Assembly: GCA_004431415.1 (NCBI GenBank)
Contig: QPMI01000481.1
Span: 1-47,260, forward strand
Source: Cyanophora paradoxa CCMP329
Lineage: Eukaryota > Plantae > Glaucophyta
Direction: 5' to 3'
Length of the DNA stretch: 47,260 nt
This document shows, piece after piece, positions 11,780-47,260 of the stretch. The notes below the pieces were generated by a model. That model made no database searches, was not told the DNA's origin, and saw only the letters and a program-made list of their open reading frames with translations. The position numbers were made by a program, and so were the translations under genes. Position 1 is the stretch's first letter. Every line of letters begins with the position of its first letter.

Positions 11780-12240
11780 TACGTATACGTATACGCCGCT
11801 GATCGCAGCCGAGCACTGCGGCACGCCCGCTCAGCACGCGGCCGACATATGCATCGAGCTGATACGTATATACCGCAGAACCGCGTGCGCGTGCCCGCAG
11901 CCGAGTACGCCGGCCGGGCCGGGCGCGCGCGCAGTCGTACGCGTGCTGCGCGTGGATGCGCAGCCAAGATTGAGTTTGCACCGCAAAACCGCTTGCGCCG
12001 CTGCCAAGCTGCGCCGCTGATCGCAGCCGAGCTTGGCCGGCCGCCGGGCGTGCAGACTGTACTCTCTTGCTGCGCTCAGCACGCTGCCGACATCGAGTTC
12101 ATACCGCAGAACTGCTGCTCGACTGCCCGCAGCCGAGCACGCCGGCTGGGCCGAGTGCCGCGGTGCTCTTGTTGCGCTCGGCACGCCGCTGCTGAGGACC
12201 CAGTCCATCCCGTCCGCGGCTGGCACGTACTGCCGGTCAT
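11780..12240. repeat. Degenerate internal repeats (copy at ~23744-24205)
   Basis: CGCTGATCGCAGCCGAGC (~11797, ~12015), ATACCGCAGAAC (~11870, ~12101) and GCCCGCAGCCGAGyACGCCGGC (~11893, ~12125) each occur twice. Confidence 0.55.
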
Positions 12241-14301: not shown

Positions 14302-14762
14302 TACCGAACGATAAGTCGGTAACCCGAGGCCGGCCGTACGGTAACTAGTAAGCTTCCACTGTCGGTGTCGGTGTCGCAAATCGATATCGGTGTCGGTGTC
14401 GCAAATCAAGGTGCGCTGCCGCAGTGCTTGCCAAAGTTGGTCGAGGTGACCATAAGTGCGCACACGTGCGTGCACCTCGACGTGCTGCTAAGTTGTGCTA
14501 ACTGCCAACTTCGGACTCCGGGACGGGACGCCAGCTGCAGTCGCTGATCTTTTCACAGACTCGCTGTCAATCATGTTCTCGTGTGCGCATGCGTCGACAG
14601 CGTATCATAGTATGCAAATTATGTAGATGTGCCGTAATCCGGATCGACGCAGATGAAGCCGGAAACTACCTCAATTCGATCTTCGCGTCAACGACTCCCC
14701 CGCGTATCCCATCTCATTACTCCTTATTACTGTATTCGAAAGCCTTGACGAGTTGTACGCAG

Positions 14763-16613
<1,851 letters not shown>

Positions 16614-22806: not shown

Positions 22807-25800
22807 TATCTCGTAATTTCCTGCAATTGCCGGCTTCGTGACGTCGACGCTGGCTTCGTGCGTCACAGCTTGATTATTTTTTCTTACGCTTCGTGCGCAT
22901 GCGTCCACTCGCCATCGACTCGCTGACGACTCGCTGACGATCGCGACTCGCGATCGAGCTCGCCCGGCCTCGCCGGCGCCGTCGAGGCGCGCCTGCAGTT
23001 TTGATTTTTTTTAGAAGCGTGAAGCATTCGCTCAGCGGCTAACTTCAGTAATATACAAGCAGGGGGGCAAGCCCCCCCGCACCCCCCCATTTACTGATGA
23101 TCGATATCATGACCGTCGGACATAGCAATAGCGAAGCATGTATACGTAGATCTGCAGCTGAACTTCAATCGAGAAACGCGCAGCGTCGACGTCAGCGCCA
23201 TATGCATACGCGCGCGTCGCGTCGGCCGCGCCGACTTCGATCTAGACTCTCAGATCTTGAGCTTCGTTACTAAGTTAAGATCTTTGGCTAGCTTTAGATC
23301 GGAACTGTTACAATTAGCTATTATTGCAAGGGGGAAAGAAGACCGAAGGTCTTCCCCCTTGCTTCCCGTTCCCTCGCTTCAGCCAAAAGTTTTCTATGAG
23401 GCCGTTTGCGAGGTCCAGTATGCAACACCAGAAAAAAATGGTGCTTTATTCGCGTTCCGATTGGCTGGGTGAACCGGTCAGCCCTCGACTTTGGAGCGTC
23501 AAACTCGAGGGGAAAAAGTGGTTTTCGAGGGGAAAACCAGCTTCTGTCTCACGTGCACTCCTCTAGCTTGTTCTACGTATACTGTATAGATCTGGGCTCT
23601 CCGGGCTTCTCCCTCGCGCGGCGCGGCGCTGCATCATAGCAACCACTTCTCCTTAGCTGTCTCCTCTAGTTTTAAAAATTCCCCTTCCTCGCACTGCGCC
23701 GCGTACGCCGCACGGTCCGCTTGCGCTGTTAACGTTGCCTAGCTACGTATACGTATACGCCGCTGATCGCAGCCGAGCACTGCGGCACGCCCGCTCAGCA
23801 CGCGGCCGACATATGCATCGAGCTGATACGTATATACCGCAGAACCGCGTGCGCGTGCCCGCAGCCGAGTACGCCGGCCGGGCCGGGCGCGCGCGCAGTC
23901 GTACGCGTGCTGCGCGTGGATGCGCAGCCAAGATTGAGTTTGCACCGCAAAACCGCTTGCGCCGCTGCCAAGCTGCGCCGCTGATCGCAGCCGAGCTTGG
24001 CCGGCCGCCGGGGCGTGCAGACTGTACTCTCTTGCTGCGCTCAGCACGCTGCCGACATCGAGTTCATACCGCAGAACTGCTGCTCGACTGCCCGCAGCCG
24101 AGCACGCCGGCTGGGCCGAGTGCCGCGGTGCTCTTGTTGCGCTCGGCACGCCGCTGCTGAGGACCCAGTCCATCCCGTCCGCGGCTGGCACGTACTGCCG
24201 GTCATATATAATATGTGTCTATCTTTACTACTTCAACCTGCCGCGCGCGCTGGGCCGGGATCAATCTACATCTGCCCCGTACATGTTCGTGCCACTACTA
24301 CTCTTTCATTAGATCCCGATTCCCCCCTTGCACCCCCGGAGCGCCAAACGCGGCCGGGCCCCTAGTATACTTCGATTCTTGCTCAGTTTGCCAGCTGCAG
24401 AACGACGTCGACGGACCGGACGTTTTCAGGACAAAGAATTCGAATAATCTTCCTCGGCTTCGTACGCGTCTTCCCGTTTGTATGACCATACATCTAGGAA
24501 AATCTTGTACCGCGTCCGCGAGAGACTGAGCATCCAATATGCATTTAGAGACGTACTAGCTCGTGTTTAGTGCTTCGGTCTCTCGCCAATCGCTCCCCCT
24601 AGTTGTAGTGTTACTTGAGTGTACGCTCCCCCCATTCTGTACCCTCTTACTTGAGTGTACCCTTGCCGAGTGGACCCCCCTGTTTCTCCTCCCCCCTCCC
24701 CCGTGACCGCGCGCGGTTGCGGGCCCCCGTCACGGCGTTTAATAATTAGTACTTCGCCAAAACTGCCACTTTAGCGGCTGGTAAATCTTTAGTAGGTCAG
24801 TCTTCGCAGGGCTTTTGTATGGCGGAGACGGGGCTACCCCTACAAATTCTCGGCTTTAGCAGGCGGGAAATATTTAGTAGATCGCCCAAAAACTTTTAGT
24901 ACTATAAATATGCAACCCACTAAATATTTCTAGCTCTCCAGTAAGTCCCGTAAGTCGTAAGTGGCAACCCTACCCGTCGGCGCCGGCGGGGCTGGAGCCT
25001 GGAGTCCCTGCAGCTGGACTCCCTGGAGCCTGGCGGGCAGTGGCGCCCGGCCCCACTGGCGGGCCACTGGCGGCCCCGCAGTTACCGCCGACACTGTGAC
25101 AGCGGCCGAAGCGGCTGGCAGATCTTGCCATGTGTAAATTAGCTACCGTACCGGGTACCGGTGGGTTCTAGTAGACTCCTGGTACGGAACAGTCCCAGTA
25201 ACTGCCGCCTAGTAACTGCCGCTACGAGTTATGGGCCTTAGGCGGAGTTTCCTGGCGAACTGGGGCCAAACTCCAGGGGCCTGAAGCGGCTGGCAGATCT
25301 TGCCCTTATGTAAATTAGCTACCGGGTAGGTTCTAGTAGCCTCCTGGTACAGTCCTAGTAACCGCCGGCTAGTAAGTTAGCAGTAACTGCCAACAGCAGC
25401 TTTTATATAGCATGTGAAATATACCGGCACGTGCCCAATCGGAAAACACTGGCATTTTCAAGTCGAATTAGTACGGGGACCTCGACGGTCCCAGCGCAGT
25501 ACTAATTTGAGTCAAAAGGTGTTCCCAGTCTAAAACTCGGCCGAGTTTTAGTCAATCGACTTGACTCGGAAAAAGTTTGTATGGCGGAAACTGCGCCTAA
25601 GGCCCTTAACTCGTAGCGTGCCAACAGCAGCTTTTTAGCCTAGTAGTACCGTAGTACGGGGACCTCGATCGCGACGGTCCCAGCGCTGTACTAATTTGAC
25701 TTGGAAGGTGTTCCCAGTGCAAAAACTCGGCCGAGTTTTAGTCAATCCACTTGACTCTTGGCAGCCCCCGCGGCCGGAGTGCTGCCAGCCTGTGCCAGGC

Positions 25801-26734
25801 TGGTGTCTAGAGCAGTGAATTTAAAATTTCACTTTCGCAAATTGCAAATTGAAAATTTACATATTAATTTTCAGAAAACTTTCACTGCCAAAAAGAGCAC
25901 TGAAAACTTTCAATATTTGCAAGGGGGGTACCGTTGAAGCTGCTTTTTGGGGGGGTGTAACCGGGTGTTTCATGATCACGCCAAATTGGAGGGTCAAACA
26001 CGCCAGAAGACGAGACGAGACGAGAAAGTTTTCGAAAGTTTACTGAAAGTTTTCAGGGTGCTTCTGGAATAATAAAATTTCACAAACACTTTTTTTTCGA
26101 TCCGTGGGGCCGCCATGGGGCATGATCGATCGGAATTATGTGGAACGGGCGGGATTCGAAGGCGTGATGGTCTAGAGACTGTGGCCGGTAATTCACAAAA
26201 AAAAGACTTGACTCGGAAAACGCTTGTACATGTATGGCGGAAACTGCGCCTAAGGCCCATAACTCGTAGCGTACCGAACGATAAGTCGGTAACCCGAGCC
26301 CGGCCGTACGGTAACTAGTAAGCTTCCACTGTCGGTGTCGGTGTCGCAAATCGATATCGGTGTCGGTGTCGCAAATCAAGGTGCGCTGCCGCAGTGCTTG
26401 CCAAAGTTGGTCGAGGTGACCATAAGTGCGCACACGTGCGTGCACCTCGACGTGCTGCTAAGTTGTGCTAACTGCCAACTTCGGACTCCGGGACGGGACG
26501 CCAGCTGCAGTCGCTGATCTTTTCACAGACTCGCTGTCAATCATGTTCTCGTGTGCGCATGCGTCGACAGCGTATCATAGTATGCAAATTATGTAGATGT
26601 GCCGTAATCCGGATCGACGCAGATGAAGCCGGAAACTACCTCAATTCGATCTTCGCGTCAACGACTCCCCCCGCGTATCCCCATCTCATTACTCCTTATT
26701 ACTGTATTCGAAAGCCTTGACGAGTTGTACGCAG

Positions 26735-28528
<1,794 letters not shown>

Positions 28529-28589
28529 ATCTAGAGTAACGTTCACATCAATCACCTCGTTTTGAGCAATCGCAATTCCGGATTCAGTC

Positions 28590-30990
28590 ATCCTGGCGGA
28601 GGCCTTGGGCCATTAAAGAGGCTGGCTACCGCAGTGCGATAAGGAGTGCCGGGGCTACAAGAGGGAATGGTGGGAGGGAAGGGGGCGTGGGGGTGGGGGG
28701 GGGGGGGGGTGGGAGGGAGGAGGATCGAGCCGGCGCGCCTTCGTCACCGCCGCCGCCTCCCCCGCCTCCTTCCTCTTCTCGGCGAGCTCCCTGCCCCGAG
28801 CCGAGCCGCCGCGCCGGACGGAGGAGGAAGATGCACCGGTTGGGCGCGGAGGCGCTGGTCGGCGTAGCGCGCGGCGGCCTCGCGCCGCCTCCGCTCCGCC
28901 CGCTGAGCCTGGGGCGGCCGCTCCGACTCGGTTTCCGCCCCGCGTCGCCCGGCGAGAGCGGCGAGGGCACGGGTGGGGGATGCGGGGCACCGTTGGTGAA
29001 GTCGAGGTGGATGGCGGCCGGGGCGACGCTGGGGAGGCTCTCCACGGAGACGCTCAGCACGTACGTCCCGCTGGGCCTGCAGGGGTCCCAGTGTGAGGGG
29101 GCCGGGCGGGGGGCGGGGGACAGGAGCAGGGAAGCACCCGTCGCCGATGGTGAGGCCGGACAGCACGACGCTCGCGTGCCCCGCCGGCCACGCCACCGGC
29201 CCCGCCGCCGCCGCCACCTGGGACGCCGGGCCCTCCGGTCCGCGGCACGGCCGCCCGAGGCGGAGACAAAGCAGGCGAGGCGGAGGGGCGGGGCGGGTGG
29301 CGCCGGCGCGGGGTTCTCGAAGCGGTCGAGGAGCTCGAGGGCGAGGCTTGGGAGCGCGGCGCCCGTCCCCAGCTGCAGCCCCGTCGCCCCGCCCTCCGCC
29401 GCCACCCGCAGCGCGTGCGGCGCCCCTGCAGGCGGCCTCGGCTCTCGGGCCGAGCAGGAGGGGCGGGGGAGGGGCGCGCGGACCGGGGCGGACGGTGAGG
29501 TCGCAGGCGGCGGGGGCGACGGAGGCGTCTGGCGCGCCGCTCGCGGCGAGGCCGAATCGCCTCCCGCAGGGCCGGCACCTCCCGGAACACGTACCCTGGC
29601 GCCTCCCGGGCACCTGCGCGGCCCTCAGGGGCGGGGCGGAGACGCGGATGGGGGCAGGGGCGGGCGCCTCGTCGGGGAGCCGCAGAGGGGCCCCCGTCTC
29701 CGAGAGCACCTCCGCCTGCGGGGACCGTGGGGGGGCGAAGAGTACGGGGGGGCGTGGAGGGAAGGGGGCGGGGCGTGGAGGGCAGGGGCCGGGGCGGCTC
29801 ACAGGGATGTCGGGGAGCGTGGCGCCGGCCTCGCAGGCGAGGGCGCCCGGCGGGAGGCGCAGGACGACGCGCTCCGCCCGCTCCGCCGCCGGCACCACCC
29901 GCACCGATACCGCCGCCGCCTCCACCTCCTGGGCGCCCTGCTCAGGCGAGGGTAGGCGAGGCGCGGCAGAGGGCCGGGGCGCACGGCCGGGGGGCGGAGG
30001 CGGCGGGGCGGCGGCGGACGGCGGAGGGGCGGCGGGGACGAGGGCGAAGCGGATGGAGTGGACGCCGGCCTCGCGCGCAGGCGGCTCCGGTCCCGCTGCT
30101 GGCCGAGCGGGCGGGCGGGGCGGGCCGGCGCGGTCAGGCGAAGCGGGGGCGACTGGAGGGGCGGGGGGGCGGACCAGGGAGGCGCGGAGGAGGGCGAGGG
30201 GGGCGACGCCGGCCTTGAGGGGATGCGGATGGGGAGGCGGGGCCGACGTGCACGGCGCCGGCGGCCGAGGCGGCCACCGATCGGGAGCCATCCTCGTCGA
30301 GCGCCCGCGGCCCGCACGGAGAGGGGCGGCAGCGGCGCCCCGCTGTGCACTTCGAGGGGCGAGGGGGTCCGGAGCCGTGGGCGTGAGAAGGGCGGGGCGG
30401 GCGGGTGGGGTATATGTACGCGGGCGGGCCTGGGCGAAGGCGCGGGAGGGTACGGGGTCGCCCGAGGCGGCGACGAGGAGGAGTGGGAGGGAGGCCGGCT
30501 GCCGGTTCTGCACGGGGAGCGCCCCCTCGTGCGCCCCCCGCAGCCGCTGCGGCGCGTCTGCGCACACACTCGCGTGAGACGAACGCAGAGCAAAGCAAAG
30601 CAAAGGAGAGGGAGCGGGCCCCAGAAGGCCGGCGCACGCGACGTGGCAGGCGCGCGCCCCCTGCCCCTCCCCCGCCCCCGCCCCGCTGCCCCCGTCGGCC
30701 GGCGGGAGCTCCCCCGCCCGGATGTCCGGCAGCGTCGCCCGCCCGTTCTGGAGCCTGCCGCCCTCCGGTTCGGAAGGCGGGCGGGGGGCGGGGGGCGGGG
30801 GGCTTTTGGGCGCCGGGCGCACTTGCGGGACTGGCTCGGGCCCTGGGGGATGCGGAGAGGCGGCCGGGGCTGGGGGTAGAGCGGCGGGGTGGGGAGGGAC
30901 GGGGCCAACGCTTGAAAGAAACAGGCGGGCAGCTGCAGGGACGCCGCGCGCCAAGGTCGGAGCCGCGGACCGAGGTCTCAGCTGCAGGCC
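28590..30990 (-). CDS. Multi-exon protein (possibly a truncated fragment) with Ig-like beta-sandwich repeats and a short coiled coil, resembling the SMCHD1/GMI1 linker region; 3' part duplicated at 16673-18401
   Basis: Exonic peptides EAGVHSIRFALVP, VSVRVVPAAERAERVVL, EAGATLPDIP/AEVLSETG, LPSLALELLDRFENP, SVVLSGLTIGD and GTYVLSVSVESLPSVAPAAIHLDFTN, then AQRAERRRREAAARY. The family call is pattern-based only; no ATPase or hinge domain is seen. Confidence 0.45.
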
Positions 30991-32762: not shown

Positions 32763-35153
32763 ATGAGCGATGACGCGCCCGAGAACGTCGGCGCACAAAC
32801 AGCTGCAGCTAGCGCTGCTTCGCATACGGATCTACATGCACCAGAAGCAGCGCCATTCGCATTCGATCGGCTCCCGCACGGCGTCCTCGCGGAGGTCCTG
32901 CAGTTCTTGGGCCTGCAGCACGCGGCCGCGGCGCGCGCGGTGTGCAGGAGCTGGCGGGAGGCCGTCGAGGCGATCCAGTGGCGGCGGCTCGACGTAGTCG
33001 GCAAGGGCCTCATGCGCCCAGAGCGGCTTTTGAAGCTCCTTGTCGATCCTGGCGTCGAGGAGCCCGAGGGAAATCCCGCCGTCGGCGCCAAGCGGCGGTG
33101 GATCCGCGTCGCCCCCGGCGCGTCGCTGCGCGTGGAGATGGGCTCCGAAGCGTACGCGAAGGCGTCGCTCGCAAAAGACTGGGCCGACTGGTTCCAGACG
33201 GCGGTCGCCCTCGTCGCGGCGTGCGTCGCGGCGGCGAGCGCCGGCCTCGGCGAAGTCGCCATCGAGTGCGTCTACCTCGTGGGCGGCGACGCCGCCGCTC
33301 TGGAGGCGCTGCTCCTCGCCCTCCTGCCTCCCTGCGCCGCCGCCTGCCCGGCGCTACGCAGCTTCAAGCTGCTCTGCCACTTCGCGGACGGCTCCGGGGG
33401 CGTGCCGTTCCCCCTGGAGCCCCGCCTTCGCCCCCTGTCGAACCTGGAGGTCTTCGCCCTCCCCCGCTGCTGGTACGTCGACCGGCCCGCCGCGGACGCC
33501 ATCGGCCGGTCCCTCCCCCGCCTCAAGCGGGTGCGCCCCAGTGCAGTACCCCCCATCACCCCCCGCCCCGCACCTTCCCCCTTCAGATGTTCACGCGGGC
33601 CGCGCAGCTGGGGATCACCTTGGGCGGCTTCGAGGCGGCCGGCGGCCTCGCGGGCGCGGCCTCCCTGGAGTACCTGAAGGCCAGGAGCAGCGGCGGCTCG
33701 GCCGGCCGGCCCCACTGCCCCGACGCCGGCCCGCTCCTCGAGGGCCTCGCTTCCGGACCCGCCGCCCTCTCCCTCAAAGAGTCCGTGCCGTACCCCCCCG
33801 GCCTCGCAAAAGATCTCGGCCGACTCCGCCCCATGGCCAGGCTCTGCTTCGAGGGGCGCCTCTCCGCCGCCGCCCTGCGCGTCCTCCCTCGCCTCGCCGC
33901 CCTCGAGCTCCTCAGCGGATCCTTAACGGTCCGCCCGTACCCCCACCCTCCAAACTTACAACGCGCCCTAACGGTACCCCCCGCCCCCGCGCCCCGCAGC
34001 TCGGCCCCGATCTGGACCGGGCGGACCTGGGTGCCCTTCGGCTCCCCCCGGCGCTGCGGGGGCTGGGTACGCTGCGCCTCAGCCGTGAGCTCGAGCGGGA
34101 CGGCGCGGCGCTCGCCGGGGCCCTCGAGGGCCTCGCGGGGGCCCTCGCCGCGTGCCCCAAGCCGTCGTCGTCGCCCCCGGCCCTCACCCTGGTCCTCGGT
34201 CCGCCCGCCCGCCCGCGCCGCGGTCCGCCCCCGGCCCTTAAGCTTATTACGTAAAGCGGACGCGGCAGAGGCGCCGCCGGAGGCGACCTGGACGCTCGCT
34301 GGCCTCTCGGCGCTGGCGCGGGCGGCCCGCGGGCAGCTCTCGCTCGAGCTGCCGGTCGACCTGCGGCCCGGCCGCCCCGCGGACGCCGCCGCCGCGCTCT
34401 CCGCCGCCCCGCTCCGCAAGTGCGTATCTCGTCCATCGTTCCTAAAGCCTGGATTGGAATCTATATTGTTCCTAGCTATATATTCTGCATCCGTCCTCGT
34501 ATTGCTCCGTCCGATCTCCTACATATATATTCTAGCTATATTGCTCCGCAAGCGCGTATGTACCCGTCCTCGCCGGAATCTAAAGTAAAGCCTTCGCTAT
34601 CTAAAGCCTGGAATCATACATATGTTGCTCCTAGCTATCCTGCATCGCTCCTAACTACTTTCGCGGCGCGTGGGCACATATACCACTCCTTCCTGTCTTC
34701 ATATATTGTTCCTAGCTATATTTCCTGCATCGCTCCTAACTACTTTCGCGGCGCGCGGGCACGGCGCAGGCTCCTGCTCGTGGTCGACGTGAGCGAGGAG
34801 GCGGCGCGGGGCGGCTGGGCGGACGGCCTCTCCGCCTTCGCCGGCTGCAGCTGCTCGGGGGGGCTCGAGGTGCGCCCTCGATCGCCGGCTGCCCCTAAGC
34901 TTTAAGCAGCGGATGCACGTGCAACAGGCCTAGGCTTAAGAATTGATCTCGAATTTATATTTAGTTTATAAGCAGCAGGCTTAAAATCTAGAATTGACAT
35001 CGATGGCAGATCCGGCTTCGCGCCTTGCGCCCGTACGATTCCACGAACATGTACATCGTGGAGGAGGAGGCCGCCGGCCACGCGTTCCGCCTCGGCGTGT
35101 GGGCGGCCGTCGCGCGCGCCCTCCCGGCGGCTCGCATCCTCACGAGCCCGTAG
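32763..35153 (+). CDS. F-box protein with LRR-like C-terminal region (multi-exon)
   Basis: FDRLPHGVLAEVLQFLGLQHAAAARAVCRSWREAV is an F-box motif. LRR-like segments CPALRSFKL, LSNLEVFAL, LPRLKRLGI and LPRLAALELL follow. The last exon ends LTSP* at 35153. Confidence 0.85.
34440..34760. repeat. Intronic AT/CTAG-rich direct repeats
   Basis: ATATTGTTCCTAGCTATAT, CTAAAGCCTGGA and CCTGCATCGCTCCTAACTACTTTCGCGGCGCG are each repeated within one intron of the F-box gene. Confidence 0.7.
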
Positions 35154-35268
35154 TTCTAGAAAGCGGACTCGGGACGCGGGGCGGGCAGCGGTGCGCAGGG
35201 CTTTTTGTTCCTTTTCAATTTCGCTGCTGCAAGCTATTGAGATCGGGTGGCCGCTTACTATGATTACG

Positions 35269-35367
35269 CCTAGTGAGCGCTAGCTACGTAGCTAGAGCTC
35301 ACTAGGTTTGTTTATTTAGACCCCACCTTTCCAGGCGGTCTTTGTTTGTTTATTTAGACCCCACCTT
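35269..35367. repeat. 38-bp palindrome ending in CACTAGG plus two 24-bp direct repeats; candidate terminus of the virus-like element
   Basis: CCTAGTGAGCGCTAGCTACGTAGCTAGAGCTCACTAGG (35269-35306, one mismatch). GTTTGTTTATTTAGACCCCACCTT at 35306-35329 and 35344-35367. CACTAG at 35300. Confidence 0.8.
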
Positions 35368-35664
35368 GCACATCCTGAGACGAGCGGGGGGCGGGGGAGA
35401 GTCGAAGACCTGGTACAATTACAAATCCAACCCCGTAGTACTAGCTGTGTATACTATATAGGTGGGCCTTTGTGAAGCGTTGAGCTCTCGAGCTTGCCCC
35501 TTCGCTGTCAATGCATTGTTAACCCTCGGAGGTTGCATGAGTCACGCGTCGCGGAGGTTTGGGTGTTATATTGCGATCAGGTACACGCTGCACTAACAGG
35601 GGGGCTAGCACTAACCGACGCGGGGAGTAACAGCCGGTGTACCCCTCGGGGGGCCTCCCGGCCT

Positions 35665-36443
35665 CTAACGATGCTCAGGCTCTAACTGAATGCTGTACCC
35701 CCCGCTGTTACTGCCCGAACCTTCCGAACTTGCGTAATTCGGCCTCGCCCTGTACCAGTGGCTGGTGTCGTCCATCCATTCGCGTACCTCCCTCTGACGC
35801 TTGAGTGACTCACGCTGCTCGGGGTAGGGGAGGGGGGGCCTTCGAGGCGGGGTGGGGAAGGGGGTACGGTGGCAAAATTCAGCCACTCGGGGGTATGCCG
35901 AATTCGCCGTGAACGATCCTCTGCGGTGTGAAATACCGGTCGCTGCTCACGGCCAAGTGGAAGAACGCGCTCCTGAGCCCGGAGAGGAAGCGTGGTTGCA
36001 TGAATGGCTGCTGGAGGGACTCGTCGCGCCAGGGGCTACGAAATCAATGATACGCTGCTGTACCTGCGCGGGCAGGGCAAGGATCTGGCTCTTGCGGTTC
36101 GCAAAGGCCGTCCACAGCGCTTGCAGGTCGGCCCAATCGCCGTTCAGATCCCTGCGTTCGCGCCTCAGGTACGATCTCGGGTTCTCTGTCATACCCATCA
36201 AGCCCGCGGCCCTGATCATCTCCCTGTCCGGGAGCTCTCGCTCGTCGTGGAATTCGTCTCTAATCCAGCGCACAAGGTAGAGCACGCGCTCCATGAAGTT
36301 CTCCGCCGGCGAGCCGCCCCCTGAGGACGTGCGCCTCCCTCCAGCACTGCGTTCGCATCCTCCAAGTCCACGTTCCGCTGTCGAATCTCCCCGTCCAGGT
36401 CGCCGTTGTTGTACAGCACGTCGGACTCGCGTGTTCGCGCCAT
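35665..36443 (-). CDS. Intronless hypothetical protein B (frameshifted in the assembly), paralogue of the neighbouring gene
   Basis: Joining frames gives MARTRESDVLYNN...FMERVLYLVRWIRDEF...LWTAFANRKSQILALPAQVQQRIIDFV.WRDESLQQ...LSGLRSAFF...IPPEWLNF...KRQREVREWMDDTSHWY. Confidence 0.7.
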
Positions 36444-36477
36444 GCTCGCGGCTCGGTGAGAATTTATACCTGTACCC

Positions 36478-37173
36478 CTACTCGCGGTCGGGGTACCTGT
36501 CGCCGGGCATCAGCCTCGCGCGCTTCCGCATCTCCGCCTCCCCGGGTAGCCAGTTCTTCGGGTCGTTGCTCCACTCCTCCCATTCGCGTATGTCCCGTCT
36601 GACGTCACGCGGGGCGGGGGCGTTTATCGGTGGGGCGGGCGGGCTGGCAGGGCCTGGCGCGGGGGTTGAGGCCCCTGTTCCACGAGTACTCGGGGTACTC
36701 TTCCCATCCCAGGGGTACCAGATTCATCGGAATTGGCTCAACTTCGAATTGGGGCTTTTTGACGTGATAATCATAGTTTGTGACATACGCCGTCACAGCC
36801 GAGCGCAAGCGCGAGAGGTCGCGCAAATTTACGTCGTCCCATTGCGAGTCCCTTGCCTTCGCGTACCACTCGAGGATTTGCATGCGAATGTGGTCCGGGA
36901 GGGTCGAGAGTATGCTGAGCTTGGAGCCCAGGGCGAACCAGATGCGCTTGAACTCGTCGATAATCCTGCCCTCGTCGTGGCTCCGAACGTAAAGGGCCCC
37001 GCCAGAGTTGTAATGCGTGTCTAGCCACCCTGCCCGGGCCAGCTCTAGCACCGGCCAGGGTTGGCGCTGTCGATTCGGTCGCGAGGCCTGCTCTACCACC
37101 CAGCGTCTAAGTCCTTGACCTGATCTATGAACTGTGCGATCACGTCCCTGGGCGCTTCCTCTGCATCCGACAT
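36478..37173 (-). CDS. Intronless hypothetical protein A (frameshifted in the assembly)
   Basis: MSDAEEAPRDVIAQFIDQVKDLD...RIWFALGSKLSILSTLPDHIRMQILEWYAKARDSQW...LSRLRSAVT...VPLGWEEY...RRDIREWEEWSNDPKNWLPG...DRE*. Confidence 0.7.
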
Positions 37174-37223
37174 TTGCAATTGCACACATCAAGAAATTCT
37201 AAACGCTACTGCGAGGCTACGCT

Positions 37224-37880
37224 ATGCATACCGATACAAATTGCGAGACTTTGCAACAGGGGAGCGCAGCGTGGCACGCGGCGCGCCGTGAAAAACTAAC
37301 TGCATCTAATTTTGCGGCTGCGTGCGGCATAAACCCCTGGAAATCCAGGGCCCGCCTGTGGGCGGAGCTAAGCGGGATAGCGGAGGAAAACAACTTTGAC
37401 AACCCTGCCCTAACCTATGGGCATGACTATGAGCCCCTCGCGGTCTCTCTCTACAAAACGTCGAACAACAACGTGGACGTGCAACATACTGGATTGCACG
37501 AACATAAGGAACTGCCCTTCCTGGCGGGCAGCCCGGACGGGCTGATTGGAAGCGATCGTATACTTGAAATAAAATGCCCCTACAAACAAGAACTCTACGA
37601 AAAGGTCCCAACTTATTACATGCCCCAGCTCCAGGGCCTGCTGGACATAACGGGCCGCGAGTGGGCCGAACTTTTTTGCTTCACTCCTCTGCGCGTGCAA
37701 ACGTGGTACGTCAGACGGGACGAGAGGTACATCAAGCTCATGAGGAAGTGCTTACATCTATTTTGGATGCACGTCAAGGAGGGCACGCCGCCCGAGCCCT
37801 ACAGCGATCGAATGAAGTCAGAGAACCTCAGCGAGGAGCAGGCGGCGCTGCGCGAGTTTAAGTCGTACGCCCTCCTCTAG
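37224..37880 (+). CDS. YqaJ-like viral recombinase / lambda-type PD-(D/E)XK exonuclease
   Basis: Intact, intronless 218-aa ORF with QGSxxWxxxRxxxLTAS, GxxxEPxA, GSPDGL, LEIKCP and YxxQxQG motifs; lower GC than the host genes. Confidence 0.92.
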   Translation: MHTDTNCETLQQGSAAWHAARREKLTASNFAAACGINPWKSRARLWAELSGIAEENNFDNPALTYGHDYEPLAVSLYKTSNNNVDVQHTGLHEHKELPFLAGSPDGLIGSDRILEIKCPYKQELYEKVPTYYMPQLQGLLDITGREWAELFCFTPLRVQTWYVRRDERYIKLMRKCLHLFWMHVKEGTPPEPYSDRMKSENLSEEQAALREFKSYALL

Positions 37881-37930
37881 TGTCCGGACCTTTCCAATAC
37901 TCTATATGATTATTGGGAGGGTCCGGACAC
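37880..37930 (+). terminator. 20-bp stem hairpin directly after the YqaJ stop codon
   Basis: GTGTCCGGACCTTTCCAATA, 11-nt loop, TATTGGGAGGGTCCGGACAC; fully paired with 2 G-U pairs on the + strand. The terminator role is inferred. Confidence 0.6.
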
Positions 37931-37950
37931 GTCTCTTGGTCAGACTACTT

Positions 37951-38002
37951 CTGTCCCAGGTCTTTGGAATCTTAATATAAATTTTCCCGGGACCCGGGAC
38001 AG
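37951..38002. terminator. Second hairpin, ~35 bp downstream of the convergent gene's stop
   Basis: CTGTCCCAGGTCTTTGGAA...TTCCCGGGACCCGGGACAG, an imperfect 19-bp stem with an AT-rich loop. Confidence 0.45.
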
Positions 38003-38035
38003 GGCTTGGTCGGACTCACCGTAGCTTGGTGTAGC

Positions 38036-41000
38036 TCAGGCCCAGGCCGGGTAGGCGAGTCTGTAATGAATCAGACCGCGCAGGATTTGGTTGAGCTGCT
38101 CGGTGCAGGGGGGCGGGAAGGCGAGGCCGCGGAGGGCCATAGAGACGTAGCGGAAGGGGTGGGGGAGGCGGCCCCTGTTATCCCACATGGCGTCCACTAT
38201 GGCGTTGTGGACCACTTGCTCGGAGAGGGGACGGGCCTGCGCTCACCGTTTCAGGGCCCTCAGCAGCCCTCGAAGATGTTGGAGTTTGCGTGCACCAGCG
38301 GGAGGGAGGGCTGGGACGGCGGCGGCGAGCCCGGGCCGAGCCCTGGGTGGCGAGGGCCTGCGAGGGCGCCGGCTCCAGCTCCATCTCGAACATACCGCCC
38401 TCGACGTCGACGGTCACGGGCGGCGAGGCCGGGATCGCGCCGGCCTGCTGCGTGGCGGGGACCTGAGCCGAGAAGTTCTCGAGCCGCCACTCGCGGCAGC
38501 CCTGGCACTCACCTGGACGAAGACGGTGCGGTTGGCGACGGGCGGCGTCGGCAGGGCCTGCGCGGGGCGTCACTCACAGAAGCCGAAGGCGCCGGCCTTG
38601 TGGGGCGGGGCGTCGGGGTCGCGGGGCGTGCTATAGGCCTCCGAGCCCTCCGATTCAGAGTCACTCACCGGGCTGAGAGGGTGGGGTGAGAAGAGGCCGA
38701 GGCGGGCCTTCTTGGCGGGCAGGAGGTGGGAGCCGTTGAGGGCGCAATCGGCGCCGTGGGCGCACCTCTCTCCGTAGGTGGGGCAGAGGGCCGGGGCGAG
38801 GGCGCCGGAGCCAAGGGCGCCGGAGCCGAGGACGCCGGGGGCTGGAGGAGGCGGTGAGAGGGGCCGAGGAGGAGAGGAAGGGGAAGGGCGCGGGCACCGG
38901 CGCCGGGACGAGGCCCTCCTCCAGCAGCCGCATCTGCGCCTCCTTCGCCTTCTCGTCGATGCGGGCCTCGAACGTCGCCCAGTTGAAGCCGACGGCGTCC
39001 GCCTCCGCCAGCTCGGGGAGGCCGTGCTCGTCGAACGCCAGCGCGGGCCGCCCGCTGAAGCCGAACGGGCGGGGGGCGAGAGCGCGTTGTCCCCGACGCC
39101 CCAGACGGCGCTGAACGCCGCATCGTCCCAGCGCGCCTCCGCCTCCGCCTGGCCCTCGTCCCTTGCCTCGTCCACCTCCTTGGCGGAGAGCGACCCGATC
39201 TTGATGATGGAGGCCTGGATCAGCACAAACTCGCGCTGGAAGAATTGGACGAGCGGGATGGTAACTGCGGGAGAGGGGTGAGCGGGGAGAGCGCGGGGCG
39301 CAGGCCAAGGGCGGGGGCGCAGGCCAAGGGCGGGGCGGACGCACATTCGATGCCGTAGGCCACCTCCTTGATGTAGCGGCCCCGGCGGCCGATCTCCTTG
39401 GCCAGCATGCTGCACTCCTTGCGCGCCGGGTGGCCGTGGCCCCACTCCATGGCGATCATCGCCTTCGCCAGACGGACGCCCTCGATGTGCCACTCGTCCA
39501 TCAGCGCCTCCAGCTTGGCGCAGATGCGCATCCAGAAGAAGACGCGCTTGAGCTTGTCGCGGTCGAATTCGGCGTCGCCGCTCTTGCTGCCCCAGTCGCG
39601 CAGGTCCGTCTCCTCCGCCTTCTTCACCTTCTCGTACCAGCACTTGATCTTCTCCGCCTGGCGCTGGAACTCGTCCGCCCGCGCCGTGAGAACGTCCGAC
39701 TCCTCCTGCGCTCCGAGGGCCCGGGGTCAGGGAGGAGAGGCGGGCTAAGCGGGCGGCGGCGGACCGTGTGCGAGAGCTCGCCGACGATCACGGAGATGGC
39801 CGCCGAGAGGATCTCACGGGCGCGGGCCGGCCCGTTTGGGTGGCCCTCGCGCAGAACCTCCTCCAGCTTCAGCACGGCCGTCCGCGCGAGATCGCGGTGG
39901 CGCTGGCGGGTCTCGTCGCTCCGGCCCTGATCCACGAGAAGCTGGAGCTGGGGCCGCATGCCGGAGTCGCAGACGCTGGCGTACTTCAGAAGGGCCGCGC
40001 AGGAGAGCACCTTCTGCACGCTGACCAGCCAGTACGCGTAGCCCAGCGGGCTCTCCGCGCTCGGGTTCTCCCCGACCTGCGGACGCGACCTTAGCGCGCG
40101 CAGGGGCAGGGGAAAGGGGAAAGGGCGGGCTCTCGCGCACGTAAATGTCATCGGCGCAGGAGAGGAACATGTGATCAACGACGTCGAAGAAGCCGCCGGA
40201 CGGGAGCGTGCCGACGCCGTGGTACGCGCCTTGGATGGTCTCGCCGGCGCAGATGCCGGCCTGGACGGTGACGGTGTACTGCGAGGCCGGCGGCCCTCCT
40301 TCACGTAGACGAAGTTGAGGTCGTACTTCTTGGCGTACGTCGGGTTGATGCGCTTGGTGACGATGACGTAATCGCACCGAACGCCGAGGCCGGACGGGCT
40401 GGCCTTCTCCTTCTCCGTCACCGACGCCAGGCACTGATCCCGCGCGATCAAGAGCTGCAGCGGCCCGCGCGTGAGCAAGCGCGGGCACGCGAGCGCAGGG
40501 AAGGGCCCTCACCCCGTGGGCGCCGCCGCTGCCGGATTTGAGGTCCGCGAGGAACTCCTTCTGCTCCGGAGTGCCGGAGAAGATCGCGCGCGGATGGAAA
40601 TCGCGATGGAGCGCGATGCTGTTGAAGCAGCCCGCCGCCGCATTGTCGGACATCAGCAACAGCGCCACATCGCCGTGCGTGAAGCCGTACTTCGCCTTCA
40701 CATGCTCCGGCAGCTCGTGAATGCTGTAAGGCACGATCTGCGCGCGGGCACGCGAGCCGGGGCATGTGAGCCGGGGCCGAAGCGGTGCGGGCGAAACCGC
40801 GAACCTCGTTGAACTTATTCACCGGCGTGAACTGGCCCTTGGTCTTCAAGCGCTTCGGGTGGCCGTCCGTGTTCTGGATCTTCTTCAGCCCGCCGAACGG
40901 CTCGAAGCGCGGCACGCCGGCCGAGTTGAACACGCTATCGCAGGTCATCGCGTTGAGCGCCTCCTCCGCCGATAGGCTGCCGAGATCGCGGGCTATGCTG

Positions 41001-41056
41001 TCCTGCTCGCCGGGCTGCTGCTGCTTCGCGCAGGAGCGGAAGGTCGCCGCCTGCAT
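38036..41056 (-). CDS. Large multi-exon hypothetical protein (~800 aa), divergent from the helicase gene
   Basis: Coherent GT-AG-separated exons: MQAATFRSCAK...VNKFNE | IVPYSIHELPEHVKAKYGFTHGD... | LLIARDQC...KRINPTYAKKYDLNFVYV...FFDVVDHMFLSCADDIY | VGENPSAESPLGYAYWL... | EESDVL...DRDKLKRVFFWMRICAK... | VTIPLVQFFQREF... ending ...LIHYRLAYPAWA*. No family recognised. Confidence 0.75.
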
Positions 41057-41360
41057 CGCGAGTGTTACTGCCCGCGATGTCTCAACGGATTCCGTTCAAC
41101 GTCGTACCCCCGCTGGCTTGTTCCCTCCCCAACTCGCGAAGACTCAGACTTGAAGCCCGCTTCCCCCCCCTCAAAATGCGTACCCCCCTTGGGCTCGAAC
41201 CCCGGTCGGTTTTCTCGCTTTTTTTTGACTGCCCAGTCCGGCGATGCAATGCAGGCGCTCGTTCAAATCGGCTGGGAACTTGGCGCCAGAACCTTCGCAG
41301 CGCGCGCAGCACTCCCAGCAGAGCGCGCGCAGCACCGGCGGCAGCATCGGCGGCAGCAGC

Positions 41361-44300
41361 ATGTCTCGGCTCGCGCTCCCTCCGGAGATCCCGGCTAAGC
41401 TGGCGAAGAACACGCTGTACGACGTTCTCTGCGTCGGCGACAGCTTCGGCGTCGATTGACGGTTTTCGAGGCCGGCATCAGCGACCAGGCGAAGGAGGCG
41501 CAGGCGCGTGCGCTGGAGGATGGCATGCAGTTCAGCCCGAGCAGCAAGGATGTGCTGCGCAAGACCGAGCTGGCCGAGCGCAAGCGCAAGCTCGCCGCGG
41601 CGCGGACTTTGAACGCCGAGGGTGCCCCCGGCCCGTCGGTGCAGTTCTCCATCGACTCCGTCCTGTCGCGGCTGCGGCTCGCGGAGGTGCTCGCTGCCTC
41701 TTTCTCCTCGCGCGCCCGGCTCGCAGCGGCTGAGGCGCCGCCGCGCTCGCAGGACGCGGACGTGCGGGCGATGCACGCGGCGCTGAACATGACGGAGGAG
41801 AACTTCGACACACCGAGCAAGCCGAAGCCCGGGCGCGATTCCGACGCCCGCCGGCTGTTCGCGGCGCAGCGCCTGCGGCTGCTCATGGGCGCCGTGCCCC
41901 GGCACATCGCCAAGGGCGAGTGGCGCACGATTGGCCTGCTGGCGGGCCCGGAGGAGTTCTACTTCAACCGCATGGCGGAGGCGGCCCCGCACCTGCTCTG
42001 GCTGCTGGTGCTCAGCTCGGACCCGGCCTACACGCCCGAGGTGCGCCCCGGCCGCCCGTGCAGCCGCGGCCGCCCCTCCCGCCGACCCCCGCCGGCCCGC
42101 AGAGGCTGGCGAAGGGCATCATGGGCGTCGAGGCGCGCTGCATCATGCGGAACAGCCGCGCGTTCATCACGCGCCACGAGAGCTCGGCGGTCTGGGGCGA
42201 GCGGCCGGACACCGGCGTCCTCACCGACGCCTACGCCATCCGCATCGTGCTGGAGGCGGCCTGCCGGACGTGCCGGGACCGCCACGGGCGCCAGGGCATC
42301 TGCGCCTTCGACCTGGTTCCTGAGTTCGAGGTGCCCGGCGTCACCATCGGCGACCGCGTGCAGGTGCGCCGTTTCTATTTGGATGCTATTTAGATGCTAT
42401 TTAGACTATTTAGATGCCATTTAAACCCCCTCGCAGGTCATCCGCCGGTGCTCGATGCCGGACTCGCACGGGCGGCCCATGATCCACGGCGCCGTGAAGT
42501 ACGTGGTGCCGCGGCGCACCCTCGCCCTCACCTTCTTCGTCCCCGTCTTCGACAAGGCGGCCGCCGCCGCCGCCGCCGCCGCCTCCCGCCCCCGCCCCAT
42601 GCTCGCGGCCGCGGAGTCCTCGGATTCCGACTCGGATTCCGAGGCGGAGCGCGAGGCCGAGGCCGCCGCCGCGGCCCGGGCGCTGGACTTCACGGAGGAG
42701 GAGCTGGAGCGGGCGCGGAGCCTGCCGCGCGCCGGCCAGGCGATGGCGCGGCCTCCAGGCGGCGATCGGCGAGGGCGACGGCCTCCGCCTCGGGCGCCCG
42801 GGCCGGCGGCAGCATGATCACGGCGGAGGGCCTCGCGCGCGCCATGCGCGTGGCCAGGCCCAGGCCAGGCGAAGGGCAAGGGCAAGGGCAAGGCCGCCTA
42901 CATCGACCTGCGGTTCGAGGAGGAGGAGGCGGGTGCCCCGGCGGCGCGGCGCGATCTCGGCGAGGAGATGGAGGCGGCGGCCCCCAAGGCGGCCGGTGCG
43001 CCCTCCCCGCCCCTAATTTCTGAGCCTAGGGCGTTCCAGAGGCGCAAAGGAATGACCCTGCCCACAGAGGAGGAGCTGGAGGCCGAGCGCGAGATGGAGA
43101 TGGAGGCCGCGCTGGCGGCGGCGGCGGACGCGAAGGCCTCGCGCGAGCTGGAGGTGGCGGAGGAGTACGCGATGGAGCTGGAGCGCGAGCGCGAGCGCTG
43201 AGGGCGAGCCCGATGCGGAGCTGGCGGCGACGGTGGAGGCGGGGGCGGGGGACACCTTCGAGCCCGAGCCCCCGTCGACGAGTTCTACCCCTCCGCCCTC
43301 CCCCTCCCTCGACGGCGCCCGCCGCCGCCCATCGAGGAGTTCTCGGACGACGAGCCCGGCGACGCCGGCCCCAGGCCGCCCCTCGTCTCCCCCCGCCGCC
43401 CGCCGCCCCGTGCCCCCCGCCAGCCCCGCCGCCTCCGACGTCTCCTGGCGCCCGAGCGGCAACCCCTCGCCTTCAGTCCCTTCCGCCCCTCGCAGCCTCG
43501 CAGCGCCCGCCGCCCTCCGTCCAGGTACCCCTCGCCCGCCCATCCCCTCGCCGCCGGGGGCACGCCCGTCGCCACGCCCGCCTCCTCCCTCGGCCACATG
43601 CCCCTCCGCCCCCTCCGCCCCCGCGCCGGCCGCCTCTCCCGCCGGCCCAGCAGCGGCGCGAGCGCGAGCGGCAGCTGCTGCGCGATCAGCGGCGGAGGCG
43701 GAGGCGGACCACGACGACGGCCAGGCGTCGGAGAGCGACGGCGAGCCGCGCGCGCCACCAGGCTGGAGCTGCGCGGGCGGAGCTGGCGGTGCAGCCGCGC
43801 GAGGCGCCCGAGATCGACATGTCCAAGTACGACGACTGACAACGTACAGCAAGGACAACAAGTCCAAGAAGGAGGCGGCCATTCAGATGCGCTCCGCCTC
43901 TTCGTCAAGAACAACGTGCGCCCCGCCCCCTTAGCTGCGCGCCCCGCCCCCTTAGAGGCGGAGCGGCCGTGGCCCAGCTGCTTAAGGCGCTGGGCCCGAG
44001 CCGCCTTCGGCCGGTGCGCCCCCCTCCCCGCGTTCGAACCCGCTAACCCCCTTTTGCCGGCGCAGCGGATCGTGCGCCAGAGACCCTACGGCCCGAACTC
44101 CCCGCCCACCTTCTACGTCGAGCTCCCGAACCTCTTCGTGTACGACCAAGGTCAGCGCGAACAGGCACGCCGGCGCGGGACGATGAAGGAGGTCATCCAG
44201 CTGCTGGCGATGACCTTCCACAAGACCTACGAGTCCAACCCCGGCTCCTTCGAGTTCACCTTCTCGAAGGAGGTGCTCTCGGGCGGACGCGCACGTTCGT

Positions 44301-46493
44301 GGAGGAGTCCCTCCAGCTCGAGACGTCTGCCCCGAGATGCCCGTCATCCCCGGCTTCGCCTTCGCCTGCGACACGCGTGCGCCGCCCGTACCCCTGCGCC
44401 CCGCCCCGTACCCCCGCCGACGCCCCTTGCGCAGATTTCGTGGTGCGGGCGCCGCAGGACAGCACGGGCAGCGCCTGCGTCCTCGTCATGACGCACGAGG
44501 AGGCACGGGAGCGGTACGCGGGCTACATGAACACCTGCTACATCCAGGGCGCCTGCCCGCGGCATCGAGGAGGCGACCGAGACCTGCGACTGGGCCCACC
44601 GTGTACGGCATGCTGCACCCCTTCATGCCCAACGTCGTCAAGCACCTGGCGGACAACGGCTACGTGACGGCGACGAGTTCGGCTACGCGGCGGCCGTCTC
44701 TACGCCTTCAACCTCGTCGGGCCGTGGAACTTCTGCGACAAGCCCGTCTTCGACCGGGAGCCGCGCGCGGAGATCGAGCCGCCGTCCGAGGGCGCCATGC
44801 TGCAGTACTGCGGCATCATCAAGGGCCAGTCGGGCACAGGCAAGTCGATGGTGACGCAGATCATGACGGAGTGCTGCCGCCGGGCCGCGTCTGCGTCTAA
44901 CCGCCCCTCCAAGGGCTCGGCCTTCTCGGAGCACGGCGGCGAGGAGGCGATCTGCATGGTGATGGCGGAGGGCCTCGACCCTAAGGCCTGCTCGGAGGAG
45001 GAGCTCAAGATGCGCTCCGGCGACGCCTACTCCCGCAACTTCAAGAACGTCCGCGGCGACGATGTGCGCACCAAGCGACGCGCAAGGTGCTTGTCATCGT
45101 CTGCAACAGCTTCCCGCAGGTGCGCCCGTTCCCTGCCCCCTTCCCCTTCCCGCGCCCTTTCTCACTTGCCCCGGCGCAGCTCGAGAACCGCATGCTCGAG
45201 TTCTTCGCCCGCGCTCGTCCTGATCCCCCTCGACCACAAGCCGGCCAAGAAGCGCACCTACCTCCACTCCGACATCCGCGAGAACGAGCTGCGGCGCTCA
45301 TGGTCGCGGCCTTCACTTCGCGTGAAGATCATCCACGCGCTCTCCGACGGCAAGGCCTCCTGCATCCAGCGCCGTCGAGCCGGCGTGGCTCGGGCGCAGC
45401 GCCTCGGCTTCTGGCAGGAGACGGCCTCCTGTCCCCTCACCCGCTTCATCATCGCCCACTGCGCCGTCGACCCCACCACCTACGTCGCCGCCCCGACAGC
45501 GGAGGGCTAACATGACGAGCGTCGCGGGCATCGTCGAGTACATCGCGCGCACGGAGGGCCCCGACACCTCCGCCGCCGTCGGCGCCGACATCGAGAACGG
45601 CGGCTGGACGAGACCCTCGCCGCTTCGGCTCCTGTGCCGCCCCTACTCCTACAAGCTCGGCGGCGTCTGGCAGACCTACATCCGCGGCATCGTCCCAAGG
45701 CCCCGCTCTCCCTCGGCGAGAGCCAGCCGCGCTGGAGGCGATCGCGATCCCCGTCGCCCAGTTCAAGGACCCGGCGCCCGACGTCGGGCCCTTCCTCGTC
45801 AAGCCCCACACCAAGGCAAGGGCAAGCGCACCCGCAACTCGGCGCCGGCCTTCCTCCCGCCCAGCCCCCCGCCACGGCCCCCCAGCAGCGCCCCGGCCAG
45901 CAGCGCATCGACGAGATGCTGCCGCGCCAGGTCCGGCCCCGCGTACCCCCCGCCTTCCCTCCCGTACCCCCCTCCCCCCGCCCCCCTCCTGATCCAGGGC
46001 AGGGTACCCCGACGAACGGCGGCGCGGGCACCGAGCGGCTACGGGAGCTCGGCCTCCTCCGCGAGCGCCGACGGCCCCAGCCCCCTCCCCGGCCCCGGCG
46101 CCGTCCTCACCGCGATCCAGGGCTTCGGGGCCAGCAGGAGGCCGAGCGGCGGGCGCTGGCGGCGCGCCAGGCGCGCGAGGCGGAGGAGCGGCGCCAGGCC
46201 CTCTGGGCCCAGCGCCTGCAGGCCACCATCGCCTTCCGCGCCGAGCTGGACTCCGGCTTCCGCGCCGGCCAGATCGCCGGGCGGAGGCCTCGGAGCGCTG
46301 GCGGGCGTTCGAGGCGGAGTCGGCGGGCTGGCGAAGGCCTCGGCTACAGCTACCGGCGCCGTGCCCTGCTCAAGGACTACGCGTCGCGGCACAGGCGCGC
46401 GAGGCCTCGCGGGCGGAGATCGACGCGGCGGAGGAGCAGGCGGCGCGCGAGGAGGCCGAGGACAACGCGCGCTTCCGGCACCTGCACCACTGA
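41361..46493 (+). CDS. Large intron-containing D5-like (poxvirus D5 / phage P4 alpha type) superfamily-3 helicase, frameshifted in the assembly; may be two genes
   Basis: Walker A GQSGTGKS (44824-44847), Walker B-like CMVMAE, B'-like LKMRSGDAYSRNFKN, motif C LVIVCNSFP, FFARALVLIPL and C-terminal YIRGI. The N-terminal part has PriCT-2-like LMGAVPRHIAKGEWRTIGLLA and Zn-ribbon-like CRTCRDRH...CAFDL...RRCSMPDSH. Several GT-AG introns. Confidence 0.8.
42375..42425. repeat. 11-bp tandem repeat in a helicase-gene intron
   Basis: CTATTT(A/G)GATG repeated about 4 times. Confidence 0.8.
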
Positions 46494-46542
46494 GGCCCGA
46501 GGCGGTATTTTTTCTCACTCCCTCCCTCAATTCGGTCCCGCG

Positions 46543-46732
46543 ATGGCCTTCGAAGCTTATCCTGCCCACTACTCGCTAGGAGCCCTGGCCGCGACCCTCA
46601 CCTGGCTCCTCGGCCGCACCACCCACGGCCTCGGCGGTCATAGGCGTGGGCTTCGGCTACGCCGCCAAGTCCCTCTACGCCCCCGGCGGCGCCTCGCAGG
46701 CGGCGGCCGGCATGCGCCCCGCCGGGCGCTAA
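46543..46732 (+). CDS. Small (~62 aa) putative two-helix membrane protein (one frameshift)
   Basis: MAFEAYPAHYSLGALAATLTWLLGRTT / ASAVIGVGFGYAAKSLYAPGG...GR*: two hydrophobic Gly/Ala-rich segments. Confidence 0.45.
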
Positions 46733-46828
46733 CTTTTCAAAGTTCATTCTCCCCTCCCCCTTTTCCGAGTTTCCGAGTCCGTTGGCGTTCCCTTTTAAAT
46801 TTTCTTCATTCTCGTTACACGTTCGAAG

Positions 46829-47260
46829 ATGTCGAGCGCGGTAGAGAAGCTGCTTGCACCGTGTTCAAATCGGATTCGCGATGCAGCAAGATCGGCGAGG
46901 CGGCGAGGCTAAGGGCGGGCGGCGGCGGAGGGGCCCAGGGTGAAGGCGGCGGATCCCGCGCCGCCGTCGCTGAAAACGATCAAGGGGCGGGCAAGGCAGG
47001 AGCGTGGGGCGCTGCCCCTCGTGGCGATCGCGCCGGGGCAGAGGGAGGCGGCGCACGCGGCGACGGCGGCGCTCCGCTGGCCCGCGGCGGCAGGCGGAGG
47101 CCTACCCGTGCCTGGGCGGGGGCTGCACCGCCGGCCCGGCCGCCCCTACGCCGTGAGCGCCTACTTCGACGAGGCCAACCGGCTGAGCTGCCAGGAGCTG
47201 TGCGACAACCGCATGCGGCGCGCCGTGGACGGGCACCTGCCGCTGCTGGTGGCGCTGGCG
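46829..47260 (+). CDS. 5' part of a hypothetical gene running off the window
   Basis: ATG at 46829 (MSSAVEKLLA) after a T-rich leader. Coding-like terminal segment RPYAVSAYFDEANRLSCQELCDNRMRRAVDGHLPLLVALA. Confidence 0.45.

Follow-up and report, generated by a model that had tools for sequence, protein, structure and literature searches.

The window analysed here is a stretch of 47,260 nucleotides from the glaucophyte Cyanophora paradoxa CCMP329 (contig QPMI01000481.1). Over about 11.8 kb it carries part of a multicopy element with a putative superfamily 3 (SF3) helicase and a YqaJ exonuclease, whose right end lies beyond the window. An initial annotation had proposed that this block is an endogenous virus or a hybrid of a virus and a CACTA transposon; our analysis points instead to an expressed, apparently undescribed element of likely viral descent that is not a CACTA hybrid. 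The features of the element are as follows, the boundaries of the helicase gene and of open reading frame (ORF) X having been set by aligning paralogue gene models to the window:

35453, no strand: best-supported left edge of the element, placed by loose contig ends in four of four runs and a step in depth
35665..36443 (end approximate), minus strand: ORFan A, without a visible intron; its frame is broken in the assembly, with 1-nt indels relative to contigs, and it shows weak paralogy to ORFan B
36478..37173, minus strand: ORFan B, paralogue of ORFan A, no Pfam match above the cut-off
37224..37880, plus strand: intronless nuclease of the YqaJ/lambda-exonuclease family (Pfam E 5.9e-30; GC 55%)
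37689..37755, minus strand: GT-AG intron of a transcript antisense to YqaJ, its joint found in the two RNA-like runs but not in the two DNA-like ones
37880..37930 (arms 37880-37902 and 37908-37930), no strand: strong hairpin (z -5.8) directly after the YqaJ stop, between convergent genes
37951-38002, no strand: weaker hairpin in the same intergenic stretch (37880..38002)
38036..41056 (lower end approximate), minus strand: ORF-X, about 800 aa, with 7 candidate introns, drawn from paralogue exon blocks and splice sites
41361..46493, plus strand: P-loop protein of about 1500 aa with an N-terminal domain without family match, an acidic and proline-containing linker, a putative P4/D5-like SF3 core and a C-terminal extension; 8 candidate introns
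46543..46732, plus strand: small hydrophobic ORF of about 60 aa, with one frameshift in the assembly
46829..47260, plus strand: start of ORF-Z, a further gene running off the window, corresponding to the C-terminal part of the fused model P0046 and at multicopy depth

For the analysis of edge and depth, contigs of four sequencing runs were aligned to positions 34900-36000. Among the 24 of 105 loose ends listed, ends lying before 35453 occurred in all four runs (4, 4, 4 and 2 contigs; median 255 letters; agreement 0.53-0.62), so that unlike flanks meet at this one base. The flank contig reaching to 35295 had depths of 278, 340, 449 and 9 in the four runs, against 2914, 3539, 4916 and 64 for the single contig starting at 35506, a 7-11-fold difference in a measure that is rough and gives no copy number; this multicopy depth persists to the window end. 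The element is thus multicopy, with its left edge at about 35453, and the CACTA end at 35300 proposed in the initial annotation, 153 bp to the left, is not the element's end. Because allele-like contigs share part of 35350-35453, and given the limits just stated on loose ends and depth, a variable subterminal zone may exist.

The copies were then traced through gene models. The closest matches of YqaJ, ORF-X and the helicase are Cyanophora paradoxa EukProt accessions or carry gene names of the same style, and the element genes other than YqaJ match C. paradoxa paralogues only. The ORF-X search returned 22 clusters with 41 members, and the helicase search 18 proteins plus 16 more among representatives (10 of the 16 checked). 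ORF-X lies on 26 named contigs and the helicase also on 26, the two being within 3 gene numbers of each other on 20 (36 contigs in all). YqaJ stands beside ORF-X or the helicase on four of eight named contigs, the other four having no partner among the matches. These models indicate some 20-30 (about 30) near-identical copies; paralogue contigs and depth agree here, in place of the single-copy genes that the initial annotation had named as the contrary outcome. On two contigs repeated ORF-X models are only 2-4 gene numbers apart (23372/23374, near full length, and 18074/18078/18080), which hints at a short unit and leaves the "large" element of the initial annotation unproven. No returned EukProt model matches the window's YqaJ above 93%. 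Two helicase alleles are 96% identical in the N-terminal domain and 62-77% in the motor region, a contrast that points to recombination among copies; the copies are mosaic. Three models (P0104, P0109 and P0110) are 5'-truncated helicases fused to another repeated sequence.

Pfam gave only a sub-threshold AAA_22 match to the 1500-aa protein. Against a profile built from 13 P4/D5-like helicases of phages, it aligned over 241 columns (HHalign probability 91.7%, P 7.6e-7); Walker A, a Walker B with a single acidic residue, B', motif C and the arginine finger fell on aligned positions. All eight paralogues scored between 5.3 and 13.7 bits, whereas the best of 808 shuffled or reversed decoys reached 1.9. 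A natural control set comprised 527 ORFs, 9 of them with a Walker A motif, and P4 alpha itself scored 415 bits. However, one phage P-loop ORF (in locus L011) reached 8.7 bits, inside the paralogue range, the next control scoring 4.4; and the part of the helicase after Walker A, taken alone, matched at P 0.0044 and 7.9% probability. For these two reasons a D5/P4-like SF3 helicase is likely, not proven. The divergent D5-like helicase of the initial annotation is borne out to this extent, through its motifs, with one natural control overlapping in score. As in phage P4 alpha and poxvirus D5, the SF3 motifs stand in the same order, and the C-terminal region aligns to the winged-helix part. Unlike them, the protein is only about 21% identical, has a long low-complexity linker, and yielded no Toprim domain and no Pfam D5_N or Pox_D5 match; profile and motif searches found no primase family or archaeo-eukaryotic primase (AEP) motif. 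Searched against phages by tblastn, the P-loop piece gave only two matches (E 2 and 7). Among 1.84 billion representatives no relative outside the host was found in the 10 of 16 new matches checked, all Cyanophora. The AlphaFold model of the helicase region has a predicted local distance difference test (pLDDT) score of 29.7, a confidence at which the lack of a Foldseek match at E <= 0.001 is uninformative.

The intronless YqaJ gene of the initial annotation stood up well. Its PD-(D/E)xK residues D105, E115 and K117 are invariant in 17 of 17 aligned sequences, and it matched PDB structures of lambda exonuclease and R354. In a tree of 40 rows, seven host copies cluster with one environmental protein from ENA (support 100/99); since deeper placement in this tree is unsupported, a viral donor is not shown. 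That environmental protein (P0002, on a 1912-bp contig) is 64% identical and sister of the host clade, and could point to a relative of the element in an alga not yet sampled. A further environmental clade (P0005-P0014) has basic C-terminal tails and possibly represents eukaryotic nuclear genes; P0011 and P0013 contain in-frame insertions resembling retained introns. A scan of JGI data gave 19 YqaJ loci at 28-44%, and the two inspected (L004 and L011) showed phage-like ORFs with no other gene in common by eye. IMG/VR gave one YqaJ match at 27%, and no relative of ORF-X or the helicase and no match to the edge 20-mer.

ORFans A and B match each other at a BLASTP E of 0.002; the core score was reached by 17 of 2000 shuffles and the tail score by none of 2000, so the paralogy noted earlier is weak but real. 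The large gene left without identity in the initial annotation is the minus-strand ORF-X, as mapped by paralogue alignment. Its AlphaFold model has a pLDDT of 30, and PDB profile searches with the ORF-X and helicase alignments gave no match. A short Cys/His cluster near its C-terminus (about 38750-38810) resembles a CCCH zinc finger by eye, with no profile match. The small membrane protein noted earlier corresponds to the hydrophobic ORF; its sequence recurs in the fused models P0046, P0050 and P0112, and an indel at 46621 within it is seen in three of four runs, the fourth being without cover. For the 1-nt indels listed (12 of 135 rows), contigs contradict the window in every covering run, mostly at full depth, and the frameshifts in the element genes therefore look like assembly errors, not decay. 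YqaJ and the ORFans have a GC content of 55-61%, the two spliced genes 70-73%. The intergenic region 37880..38002 is variable among copies: numerous loose ends lie there, as do two go-back joints (52 and 62 nt). Mimiviruses have hairpins at their transcript ends, and by analogy the hairpin after the YqaJ stop could serve in this way, or as an origin. Searches for tRNAs and Rfam families gave no match.

Of the candidate GT-AG introns, 7 fall in ORF-X and 8 in the helicase gene, and 4 of these 15 were seen spliced. Splicing was read from runs X15 and X17, which come from two studies and whose RNA class is an inferred label. Among the 15 of 138 joints listed, five GT-AG joints are common to the two RNA-like runs and missing from both DNA-like runs; three belong to the helicase gene and one to ORF-X (38558-38668), and one lies antisense in YqaJ. 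RNA-like pieces also start or stop at 44435, 45114 and 45931, beside predicted splice sites of the helicase core. The host-type introns of the initial annotation are thus supported, while its phrase "partly adopted" is too weak for two large genes with 7-8 candidates each. In one RNA-like run the antisense spliced contig across YqaJ is deeper than the unspliced one (199 vs 52); this transcript may be a long 3' end of ORF-X or a means of silencing YqaJ. The deepest RNA-like contig departs from the window at 42500 and continues into sequence that matches an insert in model P0048; most of the N-domain transcript may therefore come from a variant copy.

Viral and transposon hallmarks were sought with Pfam, PHROGs and NCBIfam. 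In the visible 11.8 kb no capsid, DNA polymerase B (PolB), integrase or transposase family was found, and neither a major capsid protein (MCP) nor a packaging ATPase was detected. To our knowledge, all eukaryotic DNA transposons move by a DDE, tyrosine-recombinase or HUH enzyme. We tentatively favour, at somewhat less than an even chance, a nuclear element of viral origin that has no capsid, is copied by its own helicase and is reinserted by recombination. The helicase would load at an internal origin, for which the divergent gap at 41056-41361 and the hairpin at 37880 are candidates, and would drive unscheduled replication with host primase and polymerase, which are invoked because none was found in the element. 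YqaJ would resect the ends of extra copies to 3' single-stranded tails, and host repair would anneal or join these at new sites or beside old copies, with tandem copies and allele swaps as the outcome. The virus-like element of the initial annotation, with D5-like helicase, YqaJ and host-type introns, is supported, and its counter-case of ordinary host genes did not materialise.

A close parallel lies in the autonomous replicase modules and transpoviron-like elements proposed in a preprint (10.64898/2026.10.13.758929, section 13). Such mobile modules are capsid-less and integrase-less, lie near nucleases and are proposed to copy into broken DNA, features that the element as read here would share, and one of them bears an assembly prefix that PMC10120064 assigns to Cyanophora paradoxa. 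They are AEP-, PolA- or pPolB-based, whereas the element has no primase or polymerase found, at least six genes, and splicing. It is a bolder and rather doubtful step to see here a new class of self-copying eukaryotic DNA transposon, a capsid-less and integrase-less unit of about 13-16 kb derived from the replication module of a DNA virus, with fully spliced nuclear genes, amplification by an SF3 helicase, and lambda-exonuclease-assisted insertion instead of a transposase. If true, the element would be a test case for viral replicase modules moving alone and for the passage from virus to resident nuclear element. A spliced, expressed family that numbers about 30 copies and carries helicase and exonuclease genes, but in which no DDE, tyrosine-recombinase or HUH enzyme was detected, contrasts with the endogenous small DNA viruses of protists, which are described as intronless. 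Its ends, polymorphism and any free forms are quickly testable, since the host, a model glaucophyte, is in culture and many of its DNA runs are public.

Several points weigh against a capsid-less, self-copied element, beside the overlapping control and the dependence on Walker A described for the helicase. Only the visible 11.8 kb and the gene-number spacing speak for the lack of a capsid; capsid or integrase genes may follow beyond the window, because the right end is unseen. The spacing may understate the unit length, since EukProt models seem to miss intronless genes, and the models do not give copy orientation. Any of ORF-X, ORF-Z, the helicase N-terminal domain and the two ORFans could prove to be an integrase, primase or structural protein of divergent sequence, and YqaJ has no supported viral sister group in our tree. 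In the window and contigs, with the right end outside them, neither an empty site nor a target duplication nor a free form came to light. All depth runs stand under one organism label, and the RNA status of X15 and X17 is guessed; transcripts may stem from other copies (4-8 mismatches per N-domain exon).

The strongest alternative, unlikely but to be taken seriously, is an integrating DNA virus of larger size (Polinton-like, mirusvirus-like or like a small nucleocytovirus), of which the block would be the left arm; its capsid and integrase genes would lie beyond 47260, and it would replicate in the nucleus and have gained introns. An SF3 helicase, YqaJ and ORFans are virus-like content, and depth stays high up to the window end. 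The supplement of PMC10120064 lists 366 MCP genes for Cyanophora paradoxa, PMC12344493 reports giant-virus insertions in this host, and PMC12220804 a Polinton-like virus (PLV). Polinton-like viruses (Polisuviricotina; PMC10120064, PMC12220804) are likewise multicopy in protist genomes, including this one; their replicases include SF3 helicases, which in some cases stand alone or are joined to domains of unknown function (PMC10120064), and the element has a putative SF3-like core. YqaJ appears in a PLV gene legend (10.1101/2022.07.28.501842), and replicases of mosaic make-up and integration in tandem, as described in 10.64898/2026.10.13.758929 (section 13), also have their counterparts in the element. 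Unlike these viruses, its visible part has no detected MCP, A32 ATPase, tyrosine recombinase (YR) or rve integrase, PolB, PolA or AEP, and it has many spliceosomal introns, host-like GC and no relative by sequence beyond the host. Endogenous viruses of this kind are intronless according to PMC10120064, whereas two genes here carry 15 candidate GT-AG introns. YqaJ and D5 are also nucleocytovirus genes, intron-rich mirusviruses have been described (10.64898/2026.08.29.747986), and introns go with nuclear replication or endogenisation (10.64898/2026.08.29.747986, PMC11890097); but the element forms about 30 near-identical small units, not single degrading giants, and shows no core virion gene. 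The close gene numbers of repeated copies, and the lack of a relative in IMG/VR or in the representatives checked, speak further against a larger virus. None of six Cyanophora MCP example contigs from the available part of PMC10120064 is among the 36 element contigs, which is a weak test. If a capsid does turn up, the result would still be a deeply divergent, intron-rich virus without known relative.

Considerably less probable is a viral relic that has been domesticated and that segmental or subtelomeric duplication, not mobility of its own, has multiplied. Yeast Y' elements and fungal telomere-linked helicases spread by subtelomeric duplication, and such recombination also yields tandem copies and mosaic alleles. 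The host-like GC (70-73%) and introns of the two large genes, the 5-kb and 12-kb tandem duplications in the same window and the recurrence of some flank left of 35453 in allele-like contigs would all fit. A sharp one-base edge shared by unlike flanks in four of four runs would not, nor would the dense virus-like packing kept in 20 contigs or the presence, no more than 300 bp away, of a host F-box gene whose depth is that of the flank.

In small DNA replicons HUH nucleases are partners of SF3 helicases. This pairing and the tandem copies would suit a rolling-circle transposon (Helitron- or CRESS-like) whose HUH nuclease has gone unrecognised and for which the strong hairpin at 37880 would be origin or terminator. 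We consider it very improbable: an HxH motif is absent from ORF-X and occurs in the helicase protein only at its last residues, the visible part has no HUH or Helitron match in Pfam, and the edge at 35453, the one end seen, has no hairpin (folding z 0.2).

The last alternative concerns the flank, where the following features lie:

32763..35154 (ends approximate), plus strand: host F-box gene (Pfam F-box-like, E 3.4e-8), at flank-level depth and outside the element
35270..35305, no strand: 36-bp palindrome with CACTAG as its right arm, 34 of 36 bases self-complementary (z -7.4), at flank depth
35306-35329 and 35344-35367, plus strand: two exact 24-bp direct repeats, the first copy at flank depth
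35344..35415, no strand: short dispersed repeat adjoining the element, with a low-depth stretch between

The F-box gene upstream of the block was correctly recognised in the initial annotation. A CACTA transposon fused to a virus in the manner of Teratorn and moving through its CACTA ends, as proposed there, can be regarded as largely refuted and hardly credible, for although CACTAG and an exact 24-bp repeat exist, as do a CACTA pentamer and short direct repeats nearby, the motif is half of a palindrome, common in the window (14 on the plus strand, 9 on the minus strand), and lies with the first repeat copy at flank depth, about 150 bp outside the repeated unit, and no TnpD or TnpA match was found in visible ORFs or paralogue models. 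Contigs spanning CACTAG have depths of 198, 250 and 4.9 against 278, 340 and 9.1 for the flank contig in the three runs with listed rows. The common edge is 35453 and not a shared CACTA terminal inverted repeat of EnSpm type, and comparing the window with itself by BLAST revealed the inverse of neither candidate end. The subterminal direct repeats of the initial annotation are real as an exact pair at 35306 and 35344, but do not belong to the element's end.

In the published record we found no description of the element family, although most subscription papers and the preprint supplements lay outside the search, so that a listing of these loci there may exist. Six paralogue contig names are absent from the supplements of PMC12344493 and from the available part of those of PMC10120064. 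PMC6704402 assigns 11.5% of the C. paradoxa genome to unknown repeats, and its available text does not mention a helicase or YqaJ.

Other observations concern the flank and the rest of the window. The near-perfect palindrome at 35270-35305 sits shortly downstream of the F-box gene. Bins over 35344-35417 have high summed depth, with loose ends behind 35390 and 35393, and bin 35418-35454 has low depth. The dispersed repeat has several differing continuations in other contigs, some ending in CTAG followed by T; Helitron 3' ends have this form. A joint between 35186 and 37881, with a short side of 22 letters, was set aside because contigs run across 35186 unchanged. The observed/expected CpG ratio is 1.03-1.11 in the element and 1.11-1.20 in the flank; as CpG is not depleted in the element, it does not discriminate the two. 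Positions 395-30316 contain two tandem duplications, of a 5-kb unit (395-5413 vs 5432-10468, 98%) and a 12-kb unit (6560-18401 vs 18547-30316, 97%), with 40-bp and 155-bp arrays inside them; the duplications may be genuine or an assembly artefact. Within the 12-kb unit, 33-bp inverted repeats and short direct repeats at 13130-14305 and 25100-26275 possibly mark a small non-autonomous transposon.

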